64,000 nt of DNA, taken from IMG/VR virus record IMGVR_UViG_3300014039_000006. One strand, written 5' to 3'. The number at the start of each line of letters is the position of its first letter. Within the stretch, counting starts at the first letter, position 1. The translations under genes and the position numbers were made by a program. The DNA comes from a virus. Positions 2-46,664 of this stretch are shown one piece after another. A model generated the notes under the pieces. It did not search any database and was not told the origin of the DNA. It saw only the letters and a list, made by a program, of their open reading frames with translations.

Positions 2-1324
2 GGACGAAAAGCAGATACGACAGCCGGACGAAGAAGCACGGCAGAAGGATATAATACAACCGCTTCTGATACATACGCTCATGCCGAAGGGTATCAATCC
101 GTGGCAAGTAACATTTCAAGCCATGCCGAAGGGTACGACACCGAAGCAAGCGGGTATTATACCCATGCCGAAGGCTACGGAACAAAAGCTACAGATCAAG
201 GCGCACATGCCGAAGGATATTCAACAGAAGCATCCGGTTCGGACGGATCCCACGCAGAGGGTTACCAGACAAAAGCAAGTGGTTCAAACGCTCATGCCGA
301 AGGAAGAGAGACGGTTGCTTCCGGCACATATTCCCACGCAGAAGGATATCAGTCTAAGGCGACAAAAGGCGCCGCACACGCAGAAGGTCAAAAAACAACA
401 GCATCTGCTTACTATTCCCATGCAGAGGGCGAAGAAACCGTGGCATCCGGCTATGACTCCCATGCAGAAGGTCGTGGTGTTATTGCTAACGGCGAGTACC
501 AGCACGCACAGGGTAAATACAACGTTGAAGACACCAAAAACCAATACGCACATATTGTAGGCGGTGGAATAAGCGAAGATAGCCGAAAGAATATCCATAC
601 ACTTGATTGGAACGGAAATGCGGTGTTTTCCGGAGACGTGACAAATGGTGACGGCGTGTCCATGAATCAGTTAAAAAGTCAGATCGAAAGCAGTGGAAGT
701 GACCTATATACAAGCACCGGAATTAATATCGGAAGAAAAGGTGGAACAACAGCCGGAAGTCGAAGCAGTGCGTTGGGTGCTGAAAACGAAGCGTCTGGAA
801 GCTGTTCATATGTAGAAGGGAATAATTGCGTTTCGTCATATCAGAACACACACGCAGAAGGATATTCAACAAAAGCCACGGGAAACAATGCACATTCCGA
901 GGGGAGCGGAACAGAAGCGTCTGGAGAGCACTCTCACGCAGAAGGAACAAACACAAAAGCCAAAGGGTATGCTTCCCATGCGGAAGGAATTGAAACAATT
1001 GCAAACGGAAGCGGACAGCATGTAGGTGGAAGATACAATGTCGAAGATACTCAAGGACAGTATCTTTTCATTATCGGAAACGGAACAAGCGACACGGAAA
1101 GAAAAAATGCAATGACGCTTGATTCAAGTGGAAACGCTACGGTTAGCGGAAATATGATATGCAACTATACAGACGGTTCGCAAATATCAATGGTAGGCAT
1201 GAAAGCGCAAATGGACGGACAATACAACGGTCTTTCTTCTAGCTTATCTTCACTTAGTCAGGCGCTAACGGCGCTTACAGAAAGAGTAGCGGCATTAGAA
1301 GGAAATACAGAAACCACATCATAA
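2..1324 (+). CDS. Tail fibre / adhesin-like protein with Hep_Hag-type repeats (5' end outside window)
   Basis: The frame is open from base 2, upstream of the M at 101. Two blocks of ~14-aa xHAEGxxTxASGxx repeats each end in GxYNVEDT...RKNxxTLDxxGNAxxSG. C-terminal coiled-coil-like tail. Confidence 0.7.
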   Translation, partial: GRKADTTAGRRSTAEGYNTTASDTYAHAEGYQSVASNISSHAEGYDTEASGYYTHAEGYGTKATDQGAHAEGYSTEASGSDGSHAEGYQTKASGSNAHAEGRETVASGTYSHAEGYQSKATKGAAHAEGQKTTASAYYSHAEGEETVASGYDSHAEGRGVIANGEYQHAQGKYNVEDTKNQYAHIVGGGISEDSRKNIHTLDWNGNAVFSGDVTNGDGVSMNQLKSQIESSGSDLYTSTGINIGRKGGTTAGSRSSALGAENEASGSCSYVEGNNCVSSYQNTHAEGYSTKATGNNAHSEGSGTEASGEHSHAEGTNTKAKGYASHAEGIETIANGSGQHVGGRYNVEDTQGQYLFIIGNGTSDTERKNAMTLDSSGNATVSGNMICNYTDGSQISMVGMKAQMDGQYNGLSSSLSSLSQALTALTERVAALEGNTETTS

Positions 1325-2459: not shown

Positions 2460-3299
2460 ATGGCAATTAATAAAGTGGAATATAGCGGAAATACATTAAT
2501 TGACTTGACTTCTGACAGCGTGACACCGGAATCTTTGCTTTCCGGTGTCACTGCGCATGATGCGTCAGGAAATTTGATTACAGGAGAACTTAATCCGCAA
2601 AAAATATTTGATAATGCCGGATATCACAACAGTATTTTTCGCGGAAAGAACTTGGGAACGTCTGTCACGGAAGAACAATACGAAGCTATTTCTTCCGGAG
2701 AGTTCACAGATTTATTTGTTGGCGATTACTGGACTTTGAATAACGTAGTTTACCGTATCGTCGGCTTTGACCTGTTTTTACATACAGGAGATACAGAACT
2801 TACAACGCATCACGTTGTTATTGTTCCTGATAAAAATATGTACAGTCACGCGATGAACGATACAAATGTGACTACAGGTGGTTATTATAACAGCAAAATG
2901 AAACAAAGTGGTCTGACACAGGCTCTGACTACGGTAAAGGCGGCATTTGGTGAAAGTCACATAGTAAAAAGAAGAGTAATTTTGACGAATGCCATAAGTG
3001 GAGATAATCCATCCGGATGGGCGTGGTACGATACCTACATTGACCTTATGACAGAACGGCAGGTATATGGATCTCCTGCATGGGGACAGGCGGCACATAA
3101 TGGATATGATGCCGGATGTGAGTATTCAAGACTCCCATTGTTTACACTTGCACCGGAATTTATCACAAATAGAGCATGGTATTGGCTGCGAGATATCCGG
3201 TCGTCGTCTGCCTTCGCCGATGTCGGCAGCCTTGGCGGTGCCGACGGCGCCGGCGCGTCCTACTCCGGCGGGGTTCGCCCGCTTTTTTTAATCTCTTAA
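2460..3299 (+). CDS. DGR target protein 1 (putative receptor-binding protein with C-terminal variable region)
   Basis: AAGGAG SD. The C-terminus WYWLRDIRSSSAFADVGSLGGADGAGASYSGGVRPLFLIS is encoded by VR1. Lies directly upstream of avd-TR-RT. Confidence 0.85.
   Translation: MAINKVEYSGNTLIDLTSDSVTPESLLSGVTAHDASGNLITGELNPQKIFDNAGYHNSIFRGKNLGTSVTEEQYEAISSGEFTDLFVGDYWTLNNVVYRIVGFDLFLHTGDTELTTHHVVIVPDKNMYSHAMNDTNVTTGGYYNSKMKQSGLTQALTTVKAAFGESHIVKRRVILTNAISGDNPSGWAWYDTYIDLMTERQVYGSPAWGQAAHNGYDAGCEYSRLPLFTLAPEFITNRAWYWLRDIRSSSAFADVGSLGGADGAGASYSGGVRPLFLIS
3194..3281 (+). repeat. DGR variable region VR1
   Basis: Colinear with TR 3901-3988. All 21 mismatches are at TR adenine positions. Confidence 0.9.
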
Positions 3300-3900: not shown

Positions 3901-3988
3901 TATCCAGTCGTCGTCTAACTTCGCCAATGTCAACAACAATGGCAATGCCAACAACAACGACGCGTCCAACTCCAACGGAGTTCGCCCG
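3901..3988 (+). repeat. DGR template repeat (TR)
   Basis: Contains 26 adenines and reads as AAY-rich SSNFANVNNNGNANNNDASNSNGVRP. Matches VR1, VR2 and VR3. Confidence 0.9.
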
Positions 3989-4029
3989 ATTTCACAACTA
4001 CCTACTTGACATAGATTCTACTGGTAGCA

Positions 4030-5346
4030 ATGGGAAAGGAAAGGTTATCCATTCAGTGGAAACTGATAAAAGAAAATTCCGATATACTAAGTTACGACAA
4101 GGTATTAGAAACGGGGTTAAATATGAATCCATTAATAGATGCGAATAGTTTATATGACGCCGGAACACTTGCAATAAAAAGCAGCAGCTTCAAGTACAAA
4201 ACACAATTATTTGAAATGAACCATCTTTTGGAAACTGCATTATTGCAGAGAGAATTGCAAGAAGGAACGTATAAGCCGGAAAAAGGAACAAAGTTTCTGA
4301 TCCATGAAAGAGGAAAAATCAGATACATCACAAGCAACACGATGAGGGATAAAACGGTTAACCATGTGTTGTGTGATGAAATCGTCATACCATCCATAGA
4401 AAAGTACTTGATTTACGACAACAGCGCTTCGCAGAAAGGCAAGGGAACTTCTTTTGCCAGAAAGAGACTGGAAGAACACTTGCACAGTTATTATAGAAAA
4501 TATGGAACTAATGACGGCTATATCTTGTTGATGGATTTTTCTGGTTATTATGCAAATATTCCACACGATAAATGCAAGGACATTCTGTATAGAATGGTTT
4601 TCCGAGACGGACTTGAAGAAGAACCGACCAAAACAGTAATTGAAAATATTTTTAAATCCTACGAAATGGATGTTTCCTATATGTCTGATGAAGAAATAAA
4701 AGTCTTGTATAGCACAAAGGTAGATCCTGTAATGAACCAAAACGTTCCGAAAGAATTGCTTACAGAACAAAAGATGCTAAAGAAAGGAGCGGACATAGGA
4801 AATCAGCTTGCTCAAGCAATAGGAATTACTTTTCCTTATAAGATTGATAATTATGTGAAAATCGTAAGAGGGTGCAAATTTTACGCCAGATATACGGATG
4901 ACAGCTATATTATTTCGAGCGATAGGGAATTTTTGTTTGATGTTTTGGACGGTATTAAAGAAATTGCGGATGAACATGGAATCATATTGAACAAAAAGAA
5001 AACGAGGATAGTAAAGATTTCCTCGTTTTTCAGATTTATGCAGATAGGATATTCCCTAACTGCCACAGGAAAAGTGATAAAGAAAATAAATCCTAAAAAT
5101 GTGAGAAGGGAAAGGGTGAAGCTGAAAAAATATAAAAAGTTGTTAGATAATGGAAAAATGACATATGCAGACATAGAAAATTGCTTTAAGTCTTGGATAT
5201 GTACATACTGGAAAATTATGTCGCACCAACAATTATACAATATGAACGCCCTGTATAAGGAGCTGTTTGGAAAGGGAATAAAATGGAAAACGAAAAATTC
5301 ACGATTACATTGGTTGATGGAACACAGTTCACCGGACTTTCAATGA
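4030..5346 (+). CDS. DGR reverse transcriptase
   Basis: RT motifs: LLMDFSGYYANI, NSASQKGKG (SQ motif) and the catalytic YTDD box (ARYTDDSYII). Immediately downstream of TR. An alternative start is at 4123 (MNPLID). Confidence 0.85.
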   Translation: MGKERLSIQWKLIKENSDILSYDKVLETGLNMNPLIDANSLYDAGTLAIKSSSFKYKTQLFEMNHLLETALLQRELQEGTYKPEKGTKFLIHERGKIRYITSNTMRDKTVNHVLCDEIVIPSIEKYLIYDNSASQKGKGTSFARKRLEEHLHSYYRKYGTNDGYILLMDFSGYYANIPHDKCKDILYRMVFRDGLEEEPTKTVIENIFKSYEMDVSYMSDEEIKVLYSTKVDPVMNQNVPKELLTEQKMLKKGADIGNQLAQAIGITFPYKIDNYVKIVRGCKFYARYTDDSYIISSDREFLFDVLDGIKEIADEHGIILNKKKTRIVKISSFFRFMQIGYSLTATGKVIKKINPKNVRRERVKLKKYKKLLDNGKMTYADIENCFKSWICTYWKIMSHQQLYNMNALYKELFGKGIKWKTKNSRLHWLMEHSSPDFQ

Positions 5347-30233: not shown

Positions 30234-31598
30234 ATGAATTGTGTCGCATATATGCGTGTTTCAACGGAGAAACAAGCAGAAGAAGGAAATGGATTGGATA
30301 GTCAAAAACGGGATATCGAAATATATTGTCGCAAAAATGAGTTGATTATATCCGATTGGTATATTGATGACGGATATACAGGAGCGAATACCGATAGACC
30401 GGCTTTGCAAAGGCTGATTACGGATTGTTCAAAACACAGGATAAAATGCATAGTTGCTTTTAAACTGGACAGGCTTTCACGTAGCATGGTTGATGGAATA
30501 TACTTGATAGAGAGAGTTTTCATGCCAAATCAAGTAGAATTTAAGTGCGTGCATGACAGTGTAAGCTATGATAGTCCTATGGAACAAGCATACACACAAA
30601 TGATGGCTGTATTTGCACAACTTGATAAAAACACGATGCTGTTGAGAATGCGCGGAGGAATGCTTGAAAGAGTAAAAAAAGGATATTGGATGGGCGGTGG
30701 AAATACACCTTATTGTTACCGATATGATACTGAATCCGGTACACTGATTCCGATACCTGAAAGAGCAGAACAGGCAAGGCAAGCGTTAGAAATGTTCATA
30801 AACGGATATTCTGATGAACAAATAATGAAAATGTTTGGATATAAAAGCGAATTTGTTGTCAGAAGAATACTTACCGGAGTTGTAAACATTGGGATGATAC
30901 CGTACAAAGGAGAGGTTTTTCAAGGACTTCACGAACCTATCTTTGATAAAAGCCGGTTTGAACTTGCACAGGAAATAAGAAAGTCCAGAAGAATAACAAG
31001 GACAAAATGCTTTGACCGAGAAACAAATTTGCTTACTGGATTATGTTATTGTGGCGTGTGCGGTTGCAAAATGAGATACCAGAAATGGACTCATGGAAAG
31101 CACAGGATTTATTGCTGTTCCAGAAACAAGGATTTAAACTATCTTCCGAACTGGTCTGAAAATTGCGATAATTCTCTTGTGTGGGCGATTGATATTGAGA
31201 AGCAAGTTGAAAAAGAGATACTGAAAATATCCGTTAATCTTTCAAAAAGCAAGCCAAAAGAGAAGAAAAGTAAACTTGAAATCATGGAATCACAGCTTGA
31301 TAAAGAGAAAGTAAAGTTAAAAAGGCTTTATTCTTTATACGCAGACGGAAACGACACCGTTCTTGACATGATTAAAGACCTAGAACTGAAAATTGATGGG
31401 ATGAAGATGAAAATAACAGAAGAAGCCAAAAGTCCGTTGAATACACAGAAGAAAGAGTTTGTTTATGAAAATATAAAAAACCTTGCCGATATGTGGGGTC
31501 ACATTGACAAGGCTAAGAAAAACTCTATATTAAAAAGCATAATATCTAAAATTGTAATTGTCAATGATGATATTGAAATACAATTAAAAAACTTTTAG
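30234..31598 (+). CDS. Large serine recombinase (integrase)
   Basis: N-terminal AYMRVSTEKQAEEGNGLDSQ catalytic domain, recombinase domain, zinc ribbon CYCGVCGCKMRY and a C-terminal coiled coil. 454 aa. Confidence 0.9.
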   Translation: MNCVAYMRVSTEKQAEEGNGLDSQKRDIEIYCRKNELIISDWYIDDGYTGANTDRPALQRLITDCSKHRIKCIVAFKLDRLSRSMVDGIYLIERVFMPNQVEFKCVHDSVSYDSPMEQAYTQMMAVFAQLDKNTMLLRMRGGMLERVKKGYWMGGGNTPYCYRYDTESGTLIPIPERAEQARQALEMFINGYSDEQIMKMFGYKSEFVVRRILTGVVNIGMIPYKGEVFQGLHEPIFDKSRFELAQEIRKSRRITRTKCFDRETNLLTGLCYCGVCGCKMRYQKWTHGKHRIYCCSRNKDLNYLPNWSENCDNSLVWAIDIEKQVEKEILKISVNLSKSKPKEKKSKLEIMESQLDKEKVKLKRLYSLYADGNDTVLDMIKDLELKIDGMKMKITEEAKSPLNTQKKEFVYENIKNLADMWGHIDKAKKNSILKSIISKIVIVNDDIEIQLKNF

Positions 31599-38891: not shown

Positions 38892-39325
38892 GTAAAAATC
38901 GTAGTAATCGCGTACTAATGATTTTTGAGATTTTCCGTGAAAACCGATTTTCAAAAATCTCGGGAAAAACGCCAAAAAAAGATGTCACCCCAAAAAAGTC
39001 CGGGAGAAAAAAATTTCTTTCTTCCTCCCGGCTCCCTTCGCCCAACTCTAACGGCAATGCGATTATTTATATTGTACCCATACCGACTACACACCGGCGA
39101 AACTCCGGCATCATACCGGCATTAATACGGCGGCGGTTGTGTGCGCTACTGCCTACGCTGAAATCCGCACACGGCGTTAGAGGGGCACAATCAGACCATA
39201 CAAGCATAAATATATTATGGTATGGTACAATGCCATAATAAAGCCTATTAGCGGCGTTGTCAAGGTGCATTCTGATCCGTATTGTGTCAACCTGTCTACT
39301 TTAAAAGTGACAAAATAACACTTTT

Positions 39326-39379: not shown

Positions 39380-39423
39380 ACCACCGCCCGGAATCGAACC
39401 GGGCAAGCACTCAATACGGTGGC
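39380..39423 (-). ncRNA. tRNA-like acceptor/T-arm minihelix B
   Basis: Minus strand: GCCACCG-N13-CCCGG-TTCGATT-CCGGG-CGGTGGT, followed by TTTTATT. The 5' G belongs to the TAG stop of the upstream ORF. Confidence 0.55.
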
Positions 39424-39536
39424 TAACGCTCAAGTTCAAAGATCGCCCAGCGCAAAGCTGCGACCGCTTCCGTGTCGTTTTCTTTCTCTGCACGCTCCAA
39501 CAGGGTGTATAAGGTGTCTATCTTTTTGTTTTCCAT
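39423..39536 (-). CDS. Hypothetical 37-aa protein (mini-operon ORF4)
   Basis: Not in the track. AAAGGAG SD. MENKKIDTLYTLLERAEKENDTEAVAALRWAIFELER. Confidence 0.4.
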   Translation of the reverse strand: MENKKIDTLYTLLERAEKENDTEAVAALRWAIFELER

Positions 39537-39568: not shown

Positions 39569-39622
39569 TGGCAAAGCCGGGGAATCGAACCCCGGAAAAT
39601 ACCGTCTATTCTTGTCTATGCC
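39569..39622 (-). ncRNA. tRNA-like acceptor/T-arm minihelix A
   Basis: Minus strand: GGCATAG-N20-CCGGGG-TTCGATT-CCCCGG-CTTTGCC-A. The 5' strand contains the TAG stop of ORF3. Confidence 0.5.
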
Positions 39623-39888
39623 AAAATCATTCTAGCCGTACTATATACATACTGTCTATTAAAACGGTGATGCTTGAAATCTCCAACGCTTTCAATTCTT
39701 TCTGCCGTGTTGGGATATTTCAAAGAAAAAACCGTGAAATACTTATCGAGCAGATCATCCGGACACTCTAAACAGTTTATCGCGCTCTGAATCTCGCTTT
39801 TGTTACTGTTCTGGTAGATCCCGTCAATCTTCACGCCTTTTTCTTCCTGTAATTGCTCCAATTTCTTAAGCATTTCGTATTTTGTCAT
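39616..39888 (-). CDS. Hypothetical 90-aa protein (mini-operon ORF3)
   Basis: GAAAGGAAG SD, ATG at 39888 (MTKYEMLKKLEQL...). The upstream part of track ORF 39616..39960 overlaps the RNA motif. Confidence 0.55.
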   Translation of the reverse strand: MTKYEMLKKLEQLQEEKGVKIDGIYQNSNKSEIQSAINCLECPDDLLDKYFTVFSLKYPNTAERIESVGDFKHHRFNRQYVYSTARMILA

Positions 39889-39904
39889 AATATTTTCTTC
39901 CTTT

Positions 39905-39973
39905 CTGCCCTGTCTCATCGGTACAGGTGGGGCGGTTCCTGTAGACGGTGGATTTTCCACCGTTTCGACTATC
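39905..39973 (-). ncRNA. Hammerhead type II-like element 2
   Basis: Minus strand: ATAGTC-GAAA-CGGTGG/CCACCG-TC|TACAGG/CCTGTA-CCGATGA-GAC. Confidence 0.55.
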
Positions 39974-40112
39974 TACAACTATTTAATTCAATGCATTTGT
40001 GGTTGCAATCTTCAATGCTTCCGGCAAATACGATTATATCGTTTCCGTCCTCACTCTTTTCTACTACGCAAAAGCCAAAATAATTATGATATGTTATATA
40101 ATATTCGTTCAT
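39969..40112 (-). CDS. Hypothetical 47-aa protein (mini-operon ORF2)
   Basis: Not in the track. MNEYYITYHNYFGFCVVEKSEDGNDIIVFAGSIEDCNHKCIELNSCR. Confidence 0.4.
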   Translation of the reverse strand: MNEYYITYHNYFGFCVVEKSEDGNDIIVFAGSIEDCNHKCIELNSCR

Positions 40113-40124
40113 TCCTTTCCCCTT

Positions 40125-40192
40125 CTAGCCTGTCATCATCGGAGCCGGGCGGCTGTCCCACGGCTGACGCTCCGGAGAGCGTTTCGACTATT
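40125..40192 (-). ncRNA. Hammerhead type II-like element 1
   Basis: Minus strand: ATAGTC-GAAA-CGCTC-TCCG-GAGCG-TC|AGCCG/CGGCT-CCGATGA-T-GAC. Confidence 0.55.
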
Positions 40193-40373
40193 TGTTTTCA
40201 ATTTCTTCTTTATATCTTTCTGCTTCTTCCAGTGTTGCGAAGTGTTTGCCAAATCCGCAATATGCAAATGTCTTTCCACCGTCAACGCTTCTAAAGATCA
40301 TAGCGTTGTAGTTGTAAATGTTTGCGACTGGAAAATGTAATTTCTGGATTTCTACCTTTTCGATTGTTTTCAT
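40188..40373 (-). CDS. Hypothetical 61-aa protein (mini-operon ORF1)
   Basis: AAAGGAGAG SD. Confidence 0.55.
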   Translation of the reverse strand: MKTIEKVEIQKLHFPVANIYNYNAMIFRSVDGGKTFAYCGFGKHFATLEEAERYKEEIENK

Positions 40374-40414: not shown

Positions 40415-40580
40415 TTAATATAACACGATAACGTCATATTTGCAATATAAAATATGTAACAAAATTAATAAAAAATCGCATCCATTAATTGTTTAATATG
40501 TATAACGATAACGTTGTAATAATAACACGATATAATATTTGTTGACATGGATAAAACAATATGCTATCGTTATATGCAGA
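40415..40580. promoter_or_regulatory. Divergent promoter region with four TAAC(AC)GATA(A/G)C operator-like sites
   Basis: Sites at 40420-40434, 40501-40514, 40521-40536 and, inverted, 40561-40577. TTGACA at 40542. Minus-strand TTGCAA, 17 nt, TATATT spans site 1. Confidence 0.55.
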
Positions 40581-43702: not shown

Positions 43703-44278
43703 ATGAAAATTGGGTATGTGAGAGTTTCAACAGTGGATCAGAATGAAGATCGACAGATTGAGGGACTTGAAAAGTATGGAATTGAAAAATGGTACATGGA
43801 GAAGGTTTCCGGGAAAAACATGAACCGGGAGCAGCTACAGGAAATGCTTTCTTGCATAAAAGAAGGAGATACCGTTTATGTACATGATTTTAGCCGATTG
43901 GCAAGAAGTACCAAGGATTTATTGGAAATCGTAGAAGTCCTTAATAAAAAGGGCGTTCACCTTGTAAGTAACAAGGAAAACATTGATACGTCTACTCCAC
44001 AAGGAAAATTGATGGTAACAATGCTTGCTGCAATTTACGAGTTTGAGAGAACAAATATGCTTGAACGTCAGGCAGAGGGAATTGAAATTGCAAAGAGGAA
44101 AAAGGTTTACAAGGGAAGAAAGCCGAAAGATATTTCCAGAGAGCAGATAATTGACGGCCTTAAGAGATACAAAGACGGACTTGTTACGAAAAAGGATCTC
44201 GCAAAGGAAATCGGGGTTTCGATTCCGACGCTTAACAAGAACTTTGACGAATTTGATCTTGGGAACAGTAAAGAATGA
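43703..44278 (+). CDS. Small serine recombinase (resolvase/invertase family)
   Basis: MKIGYVRVSTVDQNEDRQ catalytic N-terminus and a C-terminal HTH. 191 aa. Confidence 0.9.
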   Translation: MKIGYVRVSTVDQNEDRQIEGLEKYGIEKWYMEKVSGKNMNREQLQEMLSCIKEGDTVYVHDFSRLARSTKDLLEIVEVLNKKGVHLVSNKENIDTSTPQGKLMVTMLAAIYEFERTNMLERQAEGIEIAKRKKVYKGRKPKDISREQIIDGLKRYKDGLVTKKDLAKEIGVSIPTLNKNFDEFDLGNSKE

Positions 44279-44421: not shown

Positions 44422-44494
44422 AGGGATATCGCCAAGCGGTAACGGCACAGGATTTTGATTCCTGTATTCGTGGGTTCGAATCCCACTATCCCCG
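44422..44494 (+). tRNA. tRNA-Gln (anticodon UUG)
   Basis: Cloverleaf: acceptor AGGGATA/TATCCCC (A1.C72 mismatch), D arm GCC..GGC, anticodon arm CAGGA-TTTTGAT-TCCTG, T arm GTGGG-TTCGAAT-CCCAC. No encoded CCA. Confidence 0.8.
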
Positions 44495-44693
44495 TTTGGG
44501 TTACTTTTTCATAGCCCATGACATTTTCTCCTTTATACGTAAACCCACTAGCGGAAAGCTGTTAAGGACCGTCACAAGGTCCGGTGGGATTCTATGGATG
44601 GTGCATTCCATAACCGTAAAGACGGACACCAAAGAAATCCTTTCTAAGTGTTAAATGTACAGTGCCGGTTCTGATGCACGGAGCCGGTGCGCA

Positions 44694-44771
44694 TGGATAG
44701 TATGCAAACGGGTAAGCAAAAGGTCGAAAGACCGGATCAGCATTGCAAGGTTCAAGTCCTTGCCTATCCAC
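44694..44771 (+). ncRNA. tRNA-shaped RNA 1 lacking an anticodon loop
   Basis: Acceptor TGGATAG/CTATCCA, U8, D loop with GG, T arm GCAAGG-TTCAAGT-CCTTGC. The anticodon arm is replaced by GGTC-GAAA-GACC plus an 11-nt linker. Confidence 0.6.
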
Positions 44772-44941
44772 TCTCCGTAAGGCCATACGGAGCCTAGGAG
44801 CCGGTCATAGATATGTTGCAAGCAGAAATGACGGTGAAAAACTTATATTCGTGGTGAGAAGCTAAAACGTGAGACAACATAGCCGTTTGGTAGCGAATAG
44901 CATTCTTGAAGTTTCAAATGGGTTTATAGGGGATGCCATAA

Positions 44942-45057
44942 CGGATAGTAGCTCAATAGGAAGAGCAGTATTTGAAAAATGTGTTAACAAAACACTAACA
45001 GCAATTACTTTTTTCAGGGGCGCATACGTGTTGGCGGTTCGAGTCCGTCCTATCCGA
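44942..45057 (+). ncRNA. tRNA-shaped RNA 2 with an expanded, branched anticodon domain
   Basis: Acceptor CGGATAG/CTATCCG, U8, D arm GCTC-AATAGGAA-GAGC, T arm GGCGG-TTCGAGT-CCGTC. A 65-nt insert (TGAAAAA...TTTTTCA stem, GTGTT/AACAC hairpin) replaces the 17-nt anticodon arm. Confidence 0.6.
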
Positions 45058-45203
45058 TTTACAACGCACACAGCAATTACAATGGACAAAACAGATAATT
45101 TTGAAACCAATAAATGCGTTGTTTTTATACAACCCTAACAGCAAACAATAATTATTTTTCTTTGGGCAAAAATGAAAAACAAGGGTTGGGAAAGGTGAAA
45201 AAA

Positions 45204-46664
45204 ATGGAATTTTCAGAAGCAATGAGAAATGACGGGAAGTTTACAAGAACGGAAAATGGTGCTGTTGCGTTAAACACAACAGGAAATTCGTGCCTTGATC
45301 TTTTTGGAACGATAGGTTCATTAAGATGCGCTGATAAAGTAAGGATTGAAACCATGTTTGCGGAAGCATACAAAGAAAATCCATTACTTGCTACAAAATG
45401 CGTATTTTACGCAAGAGACATTAGATGCGGTCTTGGCGAGAGAAAAACATTTAGAACACTTATTAAGTATATGGCAGAAAATCACCCAGAATCTATTCGC
45501 AATAATATTGATTTGATTGGCTTTTACGGAAGATATGATGATCTTTATTCTCTTGTCGGAACGCAACTTGAAGATGAAATGTTTTCTTCGATGAAAGATC
45601 AGTTTGAAAAAGATCTGGACTCCATGGAAAAAGGTTGCGCAGTTTCGCTTCTTGGAAAATGGATTAAAACAAGCGCAACCAGAAACAAAGACGGTAAGCA
45701 ACTTGGAATTTTGACGGCTGAAAAATTAGGATATGAGAACAAAGAATTTAATATTCTTGTTCGTAAATTACGGTCTTATATAGGGATTGTTGAAAGGGAT
45801 ATGTCTGCCGGAAACTGGGATAAAATTAAATATCCGGAAGTACCTAGCCGTGCAATGATGCTTTATAGAAAAGCGTTTGAAAGACACGATGCAGAAAGAT
45901 TTTCGGATTTTACAAGAAAAGCGTTATCTGGCGAAGAAAAAATCAATTCTTCTACGCTTTACCCATATGATATTGTCGAAAAAATATTATATAGTGGAAA
46001 AAATAGTGAAGTATTAGAAGCACAATGGAAGCAACTTCCTGACTACGTGGAAAAAGGAACAAATGCTTTGGTTATGGCAGATGTATCGGGATCCATGTAT
46101 GGAAGACCAATGGCAACATCAATTGGCCTTGCAATTTACTTTGCAGAGAGAAATGTCGGTGCATATCATAATCTGTTTATGACATTTTCCAGTATGCCAA
46201 AAACAGTTGCCTTAAAGGGAGAAACGCTTGAACAGAAGATATGCAATGTGAGCAGAGCGAATTGGAGCATGAATACAGATCTTCAAGCGGCTTTCTATAA
46301 AGTCCTTGAAATTGCGAAAAAAAACAATGTTTCACGGGAAGAAATGCCAAAATCTATTATTGTTATTTCTGATATGGAAATTGATGCTTGCGGAGACGAA
46401 GACTGGTCTTTCTATGACAATACGGCAAAGAAATTTAATGAGTCCGGTTATGATATTCCAAACATTATTTTTTGGAATGTAAACAGCAGAAGCAATGTAT
46501 TTCACGCAGATGCGGACAGAAAAGGAGTTCAAATTTGCAGCGGACAGTCAACCACAGTCTTTAAGCAATTGATTGGTTGCATTGGCTTTACTCCGGTTGA
46601 AATGATGAAAAAAGTTTTATGCTCTGAAAGATACGAGAATATTTCGATAGTGGGGAAAGCCTAG
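45204..46664 (+). CDS. Ro60-like architecture protein (helical N-domain + vWA with MIDAS; resembles DUF2828 family)
   Basis: N-terminus FTRTENGAVALNTTGNSCLDLFGTIGSLR (recalled as the DUF2828 signature). ~300-aa helical region, then the DxSGS MIDAS motif in VMADVSGSMYG. Confidence 0.6.
   Translation: MEFSEAMRNDGKFTRTENGAVALNTTGNSCLDLFGTIGSLRCADKVRIETMFAEAYKENPLLATKCVFYARDIRCGLGERKTFRTLIKYMAENHPESIRNNIDLIGFYGRYDDLYSLVGTQLEDEMFSSMKDQFEKDLDSMEKGCAVSLLGKWIKTSATRNKDGKQLGILTAEKLGYENKEFNILVRKLRSYIGIVERDMSAGNWDKIKYPEVPSRAMMLYRKAFERHDAERFSDFTRKALSGEEKINSSTLYPYDIVEKILYSGKNSEVLEAQWKQLPDYVEKGTNALVMADVSGSMYGRPMATSIGLAIYFAERNVGAYHNLFMTFSSMPKTVALKGETLEQKICNVSRANWSMNTDLQAAFYKVLEIAKKNNVSREEMPKSIIVISDMEIDACGDEDWSFYDNTAKKFNESGYDIPNIIFWNVNSRSNVFHADADRKGVQICSGQSTTVFKQLIGCIGFTPVEMMKKVLCSERYENISIVGKA

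Follow-up and report, generated by a model that had tools for sequence, protein, structure and literature searches.

Two type II hammerhead motifs on the stop codons of small phage genes, probably self-cleaving ribozymes that divide an operon transcript into single-gene messages

Introduction

What are two hammerhead-like RNA motifs doing between the small genes of a tailed phage, and are they self-cleaving ribozymes in the first place? Clusters of type II hammerheads that flank small phage ORFs were described in 2011 (Perreault et al., PMC3088659). Examples are those of Clostridium scindens and Azorhizobium caulinodans and the ardA triple of Agrobacterium tumefaciens (PMC3088659, PMC6155905). 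Clustered prophage hammerheads cleave in vitro, an Agrobacterium tumefaciens set in vivo too, and Perreault et al. proposed that they process polycistronic mRNA (PMC3088659). The role of bacterial and phage hammerheads is still called largely elusive (PMC6765202, PMC6155905).

The locus studied here lies in the window, that is, the whole 64,000-nucleotide stretch of the IMG/VR virus record IMGVR_UViG_3300014039_000006 that was analysed. An earlier note had read two type II hammerhead motifs from its minus strand, and re-reading of the sequence, comparison with Rfam and covariation among relatives bear this out for both.

The phage and its small-gene operon

The window encodes a terminase, a portal, a major head protein, anti-repressors, an endolysin and a large serine integrase (PHROGs), a gene content that identifies the virus, of about 57 kb, as a tailed phage. 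Since a scan of GTDB representative genomes with the stem I/core pattern of hammerhead 2 gave no match, the host was read from relatives of the terminase, which occur in Lachnospiraceae and Clostridia genome bins (MAGs); it is probably a Lachnospiraceae or other Clostridia bacterium.

Most genes in the window lie on the plus strand, and the two hammerheads are found in a minus-strand island of small genes, which is arranged in the following order:

40417-40445, minus strand: promoter-like site TTGCAA-17-TATATT with an upstream TG (consensus scan, 9/12 matches; putative function)
40188-40373, minus strand: ORF1, 61 aa; TAG stop overlapping hammerhead 1 at its first base
40124-40189, minus strand: hammerhead 1, type II (Rfam RF02276 and covariation)
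39969-40112, minus strand: ORF2, 47 aa; ribosome-binding site (RBS) GGGGAAAGGA after the hammerhead 1 tail, TAG stop overlapping hammerhead 2
39904-39970, minus strand: hammerhead 2, type II (full-length match to Rfam RF02276)
39616-39888, minus strand: ORF3, 90 aa, conserved core gene of the operon
39570-39622, minus strand: tl1, a tRNA-like element right after the ORF3 stop; acceptor-like stem and T-arm CCGGGG-UUCGAUU-CCCCGG
39423-39536, minus strand: ORF4, 37 aa; 86-92% amino acid identity in L004-L008
39379-39424, minus strand: tl2, a tRNA-like element; stem AGCCACCG / CGGUGGUU and T-arm CCCGG-UUCGAUU-CCGGG, then UUUUAUU

The promoter-like site is followed by a conserved leader with the RBS AAAAGGAGAG, and the same leader is present in the related IMG/VR contigs L005, L007 and L008. 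The exact ORF1 protein recurs in at least 22 contigs from several samples, homologues of ORF2 with 73-78% identity sit inside the hammerhead arrays of L037 and L141, and ORF3 is 86-94% identical at the amino acid level in L004-L008 and about 60% identical in more distant phages. Comparison of ORF1-ORF4 with Pfam and PHROG gave no assignment save a weak match of ORF4 to phrog_9101, and a tblastn search of GenBank phages with ORF1 and ORF3 gave no match. Each ribozyme ends about 18 nt before the next start codon and a few nucleotides before its Shine-Dalgarno sequence. At the other end, each begins at the TAG stop of the preceding ORF (40190-40188 and 39971-39969), as the earlier note had stated.

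Architecture of the two hammerheads

Read directly, both elements follow the same order: the 3' strand of stem II (GUC), G12A13A14, the stem III hairpin, C17, the stem I hairpin, the core CCGAUGA and finally GAC, after which comes a tail complementary to loop I. The parts are, for hammerhead 1:

40188-40186 / 40134-40132, minus strand: stem II, GUC / GAC
40185-40183, minus strand: G12A13A14
40182-40177 / 40172-40167, minus strand: stem III, 6 bp
40166, minus strand: C17; predicted cut 40166|40165
40165-40161 / 40147-40143, minus strand: stem I, 5 bp
40142-40136, minus strand: core CCGAUGA (C3-A9), with C4 at 40141
40135, minus strand: extra U between A9 and G10.1
40154-40151 / 40130-40127, minus strand: pseudoknot AGCC:GGCU between loop I and the 3' tail

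and for hammerhead 2:

39969-39967 / 39914-39912, minus strand: stem II
39966-39964, minus strand: G12A13A14
39963-39956 / 39952-39945, minus strand: stem III, 8 bp
39944, minus strand: C17; predicted cut 39944|39943
39943-39938 / 39927-39922, minus strand: stem I, 6 bp
39921-39915, minus strand: core CCGAUGA, with C4 at 39920
39933-39930 / 39910-39907, minus strand: pseudoknot GCCC:GGGC between loop I and the 3' tail

All proposed pairs of both copies are canonical, and stem III opens with an A-U pair in each. C3, G5, A6, G8, A9, G12, A13, A14, the A15.1-U16.1 pair and a non-G nucleotide at position 17 are present in both, as is the G10.1-C11.1 pair that closes stem II (G40134-C40186 in hammerhead 1, G39914-C39967 in hammerhead 2). 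A loop I/3'-tail pseudoknot of at least 4 bp, a tertiary contact of the type II class, can likewise be formed by both copies. The U4 that RF02276 calls for is replaced by C4 in both (40141, 39920).

This re-reading agrees with the earlier note on the A15.1-U16.1 pair and C17, on cleavage after 40166 and 39944, on the loop I/3'-tail pairing, and on three departures from consensus, namely C4, a stem II of 3 bp and the extra U after A9 in the first element. It parts from it on the length of stem III in the second element, where the pairing stands and 8 bp are counted instead of 6 bp plus the A-U pair.

Family assignment

The covariance search with the Rfam type II model that the earlier note had proposed places hammerhead 1 firmly in the family, with a full-length RF02276 match of 43.1 bits (E = 1.7e-5 over the whole window) against a gathering score of 37 bits. 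Hammerhead 2 also matches over its full length, at 32.1 bits and thus below the gathering score; this match was obtained only in a narrow scan, the Rfam default filters having missed the element in 64-kb and 10-kb scans. The orthologues in L007, which carry U4, reach 47.6 bits (hammerhead 1) and 37.4 bits (hammerhead 2), i.e., about 5 bits more, so that C4 alone accounts for the sub-threshold score of hammerhead 2. The two copies are like RF02276 in their permuted arrangement (loops close stems I and III, and stem II is the open one), core and short stem II, as well as in the Watson-Crick pseudoknot between loop I and the 3' tail (PMC3088659), and differ from it by C4 in both copies and by the extra U between A9 and G10.1 in hammerhead 1.

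With its short core, the hammerhead is known to give false positives in large databases (PMC3088659), which raises the question whether both matches might be chance occurrences of a short motif. The sequence pattern GTCGAAAC..GTC..CYGATGA matches twice in the window, whereas not one of 100 dinucleotide-preserving shuffles yields even this pattern. Chance would also have to place two copies in the same orientation, each exactly on a stop codon, and to supply orthologues with compensatory changes, and these comparative data already refute such a reading, to which we give practically no credence. A family model of our own, run over the whole window with filters off, finds these two sites alone, the next best scoring 10 bits.

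Folding of the individual sequences does not distinguish the hammerhead structure (z = -0.67 and -1.39), and the minimum-energy structure of hammerhead 1 is a different one (-24.7 kcal/mol, versus -16.5 kcal/mol when the nested stems of the hammerhead are scored and the pseudoknot is left out). A weak signal is expected here because the fold depends on non-canonical and pseudoknot contacts, and these energies were left out of the evidence for it. In hammerhead 2, C4 permits an alternative 4-bp helix on the minus strand (39966-39969 / 39917-39920), composed of G12-C4, C11.1-G5, U-A6 and G-U7, which forms part of the structure of lowest energy. Such a helix would be a competitor of the active core and may bear on slowed or conditional cleavage.

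Relatives and covariation

Relatives were collected from IMG/VR contigs via ORF3 and via stem I/core patterns that accept C or U at position 4, and these searches yielded dozens of hammerhead orthologues and paralogues. Stems I, II and III and the pseudoknot all covary. In sets that are in part selected for pairing (the scanner set a minimum of 4 bp for stem I and for stem III, and the 142-hit alignment is model-fitted), 98.3% of cells are paired across 27 unique relatives, with both sides changed in 11 of 16 pairs, and 98.5% are paired across 142 distinct family-model hits, which come from 100 further loci and show compensatory changes in 14 of 15 pairs. Slid controls reach 30-51% for the smaller set and 28-58% over both. 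One of the stem I/core pattern searches left stem III and the whole 5' half unconstrained; all loci that it recovered keep G12A13A14, the GUC triplet and a complementary stem III, the latter in several sequences, with one stem II change each in L010 and L026.

The pseudoknot comprises at least four Watson-Crick pairs in all 27 unique relatives, where it appears at the same position as five different sequence pairs (AGCC:GGCU, GCCC:GGGC, UGGC:GCCA, GGUC:GACC and UUGC:GCAA). Loss of stem complementarity at homologous loci, which the earlier note would have counted against its own proposal, was looked for; pairing is kept (98%, with compensatory changes).

The position next to stop codons recurs among the relatives. 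Of the 217 unique ribozyme contexts collected over all loci, 196 have G12 no more than 12 nt from the stop codon of an ORF that is at least 25 codons long, and in 93 of these it is a TAG whose G is shared with stem II; the first ATG follows stem II at a median distance of 18 nt. A DNA search of GenBank phages matched Dulem virus 39 alone, over a hammerhead segment of 50 nt. The stretch of that phage that was examined has three Rfam Hammerhead_II matches, and the two of these in its small-ORF operon lie directly 3' of stop codons. Longer series also occur: L063 (8158-11328, plus strand), L125 (3616-6710, plus strand), L032, L064 and L066 carry arrays of 6-9 same-strand type II hammerheads, each after an ORF.

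Core variants and cassette boundaries

The earlier note had worried that the departures from consensus might make these elements variant or inactive hammerheads or members of a related fold, a concern that the relatives and the literature do not sustain. A stem II of 2-3 bp is normal for the type II class (PMC3088659). The extra U after A9 occurs in 25 of the 142 distinct relatives, and the hammerhead of CChMVd tolerates an additional nucleotide between A9 and G10.1, where a U speeds trans-cleavage 3-4-fold (PMC3705267). Position 4 is U in 123 and C in 19 of the 142 distinct hits and is the sole constrained core position that varies appreciably. A scan neutral at position 4 finds C4 in 25 of 136 pattern-type ribozymes, nearly all of them from the hammerhead 2 subfamily, whose stem I reads URCAGGAACYGCCCYACCUGYA. 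Within this subfamily C4 is the majority state (40 of 57 occurrences; 24 of 35 unique sequences) across many samples. In the hammerhead 1 subfamily, by comparison, it is seen in this phage alone among the relatives found, and the closest relatives, L004-L007, have U4 in both ribozymes. The identical sequence with both C4s was recovered from independent assemblies of other samples, and is therefore not an assembly error. Comparative data thus identify C4 and the extra U as recurrent natural variants in the phage ribozyme population.

The same two departures are known from viroids, where they are compatible with function in vivo: a U4C variant had considerably reduced activity in vitro and retained infectivity in vivo (PMC3088659), and CChMVd (+) carries an extra A10 (PMC3088659, PMC3705267). 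The viroid hammerheads are type III ribozymes in circular RNA replicons, whereas those considered here are type II ribozymes of DNA phages, in which the variants are common and C4 is the majority in one subfamily. With C4, intrinsic cleavage is probably slower, and the ribozymes probably remain functional.

Near relatives differ in their flanked ORFs: the number of ORF-ribozyme units is three in L007, one in L005 and L006 and zero in L008, and L157 retains ORF1 with another ribozyme and another ORF after it. In an alignment with L157, the window loses homology exactly at TAGTCGAAAC of hammerhead 1 and regains it at TAGTCGAAAC of hammerhead 2, so that conserved ribozyme segments coincide with cassette boundaries. 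These comparisons show that ORF-plus-ribozyme cassettes are shuffled among related phages; that the boundaries fall exactly on the 5' core segment of the ribozyme appears to be a new detail.

Such boundaries also lend some weight to a reading in which both copies are crippled relics, inactivated by the change from U4 to C and kept as hairpins or as recombination linkers between cassettes. The reduced in vitro activity of U4C (PMC3088659) and the score of hammerhead 2 under the Rfam threshold point the same way, and the U4 of the closest relatives would allow the loss of function to be recent. Against this, C4 dominates the hammerhead 2 subfamily in many samples and alongside several stem III sequences, the bearers of C4 keep all other core positions and stems, and variation confined to position 4 is the pattern of a tolerated change and not of decay. 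We accordingly regard the relic reading as unlikely, if one to be taken seriously.

Proposed function

The data are best explained, in our judgement and with good though not full confidence, by a model in which both elements are genuine type II self-cleaving ribozymes that sit in intercistronic gaps and would turn a polycistronic transcript into single-gene mRNAs. Each ribozyme would cut after C17 (40166|40165 and 39944|39943) during or just after transcription. Of the two products, the upstream one would carry the stem III hairpin at its 3' end, followed by C and a 2',3'-cyclic phosphate. The downstream one would open with a 5'-OH placed directly at the stem I hairpin, and every single-gene mRNA would thus bear a hairpin at each new end. 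Type II is the sole permutation in which both products retain a capped helix. Hairpins at RNA termini hinder both 5'-end-dependent and 3'-exonucleolytic decay in Firmicutes. The stability and translation of each message would thereby become independent of its neighbours, and the ribozyme would act as a natural insulator. Messages whose fate does not depend on their neighbours would make ORF-plus-ribozyme units portable, which fits the shuffling of cassettes. Cutting of the mRNA into single-gene messages is the most likely role of the ribozymes, to which the protective-hairpin and insulator functions are inferred additions. The overlap with stop codons, together with the hairpins left on either side of the cut, offers a possible reason why type II is a suitable permutation for processing between cistrons.

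An engineered counterpart is RiboJ, an insulator made from a satellite-RNA hammerhead, which is placed upstream of the RBS, where its cleavage strips away the preceding RNA context and a hairpin remains at the 5' end. The phage elements resemble it as self-cleaving hammerheads upstream of an RBS and differ in that RiboJ is engineered and their own insulator role is inferred.

The ribozymes might instead excise the RNA of the flanked ORF, the ends being joined by an RtcB-type ligase of the host or by the ribozyme itself into circular or rearranged RNA. Ends with 5'-OH and 2',3'-cyclic phosphate are, by established biochemistry, substrates of RtcB-type ligases, and because stem II (GUC/GAC) is common to both ribozymes, a chimeric hammerhead could re-form across a ligated junction. 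Stem II varies within the arrays of other phages, however, no sequence feature requires such a reading, and spliced or circular products were sought for the clustered prophage hammerheads and none was found (PMC3088659). Excision with ligation is thus very improbable, and processing into separate messages remains the preferred explanation.

The locus belongs with the clustered prophage hammerheads: it has two same-strand copies next to non-conserved small genes, in a phage identified by terminase, portal and capsid. It shares with them several same-strand ribozymes flanking small non-conserved ORFs and a proposed role in mRNA processing. Cleavage has been shown for such clusters and is predicted for the present copies; the present locus adds that the ribozymes overlap stop codons exactly, that cassettes form a mosaic among near relatives and that tRNA-like elements lie downstream. 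Documented before are the ribozyme class itself, its type II topology and its pseudoknot, as are its occurrence in clusters between small phage ORFs and the two core variations. The dominance of C4 in one phage subfamily and the strictly polar association of tRNA-like minihelices with hammerhead arrays appear to be new details.

This group of phages could make the question of the role of hammerheads testable. Near-identical operons with 0, 1, 2 or 3 ribozyme cassettes offer a natural comparison for that role, and the U4 and C4 alleles of otherwise almost identical ribozymes offer a second.

tRNA-like elements downstream of the hammerheads

Both tl1 and tl2 are built from an acceptor-like stem of 7-8 bp and a canonical T-arm, and are without a D arm, an anticodon arm or CCA; tl2 lies directly 3' of the ORF4 stop and may also terminate transcription. 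The T-arm of these tRNA-like minihelices is GGUUCGAUUCC, and they are also present in L004, L010, L013, L017, L019 and L029-L222. Elements of the tl1 type are present in more than 120 IMG/VR contigs, and Rfam has no family for them. The covariation of tl1 is limited, as expected of a highly conserved sequence: 95% of cells are paired, and a single sequence accounts for most of the change in the 5 pairs that differ on both sides.

ARAGORN does not call either element a tRNA, and in Rfam the matches to mascRNA (RF01684; 19.5 versus 42.5 bits) and to tRNA-Sec (18 and 14 versus 47 bits) fall short of the thresholds. The mascRNA identity was rejected on this score, as was RAGATH-36 (RF03104; 18.6 bits versus a gathering score of 70), to which the T-loop-like first hairpin alone aligns. 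An attP site was judged unlikely: the large serine integrase is 8 kb away, no tyrosine integrase was found among the ORFs scanned against PHROGs, and the elements include the complementary 5' strand and are strictly polar relative to the operon.

This polarity holds for loci ascertained from either side. At hammerhead-ascertained loci, 40 tRNA-like elements within 1.5 kb of the last ribozyme lie downstream on the same strand, none lies upstream and 2 lie on the opposite strand; at tl1-ascertained loci, a hammerhead is found within 1.5 kb upstream in 37 of 71 cases and downstream in 0 of 48. We read the elements, from their form and position, as putative RNase P/Z-type processing sites or tRNA-shaped attenuators. 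Their presence hints that phages mix ribozyme and RNase P/Z punctuation.

In other systems, mascRNA is released from MALAT1, and mitochondrial tRNAs punctuate transcripts. The phage elements are like these in presenting an acceptor/T-arm mimic at an RNA end that RNase P and RNase Z could cut; they are unlike mascRNA in their bacterial-phage context, in an Rfam score far below threshold and in that their processing is predicted.

A broader and distinctly more tentative model would treat the island as a modular array punctuated by RNA, in which optional ORF-plus-hammerhead cassettes stand upstream of a conserved ORF3-tl1-ORF4-tl2 core, minihelices of a so far undescribed family mark the junctions of that core, RNase P and RNase Z would cut these, and the C4 subfamily would represent a tuned, slower or conditional ribozyme. 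We hold this model to be possible and somewhat doubtful. If it is true, a ribozyme and the tRNA-processing enzymes of the host do the same job in one transcript.

Other features of the window

Beyond tl2, a candidate non-coding RNA of about 235 nt lies at about 38993-39263 on the minus strand (folding z-score -2.9). It comes with a near-consensus promoter of its own (TTGACA-17-TATTAT, 39263-39235) and with a terminator that is strong (39031-39000), and is conserved in L004-L008 with a variable inserted hairpin; Rfam gave no match to it at E <= 10.

On the plus strand, the region 44422-45057 carries a tRNA-Gln(UUG) and, after it, two tRNA-like RNAs; the first lies at 44695-44770, and the second, at 44942-45057, has an insert of 54 nt in its anticodon arm. 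Directly downstream, 45114-46664 (plus strand) encodes a 516-aa protein assigned to phrog_850 ('RNA-binding protein') with the Pfam domains DUF2828, DUF7788 and VWA. The same arrangement is present in L002, L016 and L023. A PDB sequence search with this DUF2828/VWA protein gave no match; together with the tRNA-like RNAs it may resemble Ro60 with YrlA-type Y RNAs.

A reverse transcriptase (phrog_1423; 4030-5346, plus strand) looks like that of a diversity-generating retroelement. It is preceded by a 92-nt template-like repeat (3901-3992). A copy that lies 707 nt further upstream (3194-3285) shares 76% identity with this repeat and departs from it largely at template adenines. Nine degenerate repeat copies at 36-988 (plus strand), mostly 42 or 84 nt apart and with a recurring CAYGCNGARGG, lie inside a 407-aa ORF (101-1324; phrog_25468), which presumably encodes a repetitive structural or tail protein.

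Finally, the window encodes a large serine integrase (phrog_95, E = 5e-101; 30234-31598, plus strand) and a separate small serine recombinase/invertase (phrog_125; 43703-44278, plus strand), a combination that suggests that the phage is probably temperate and may carry an invertible segment.
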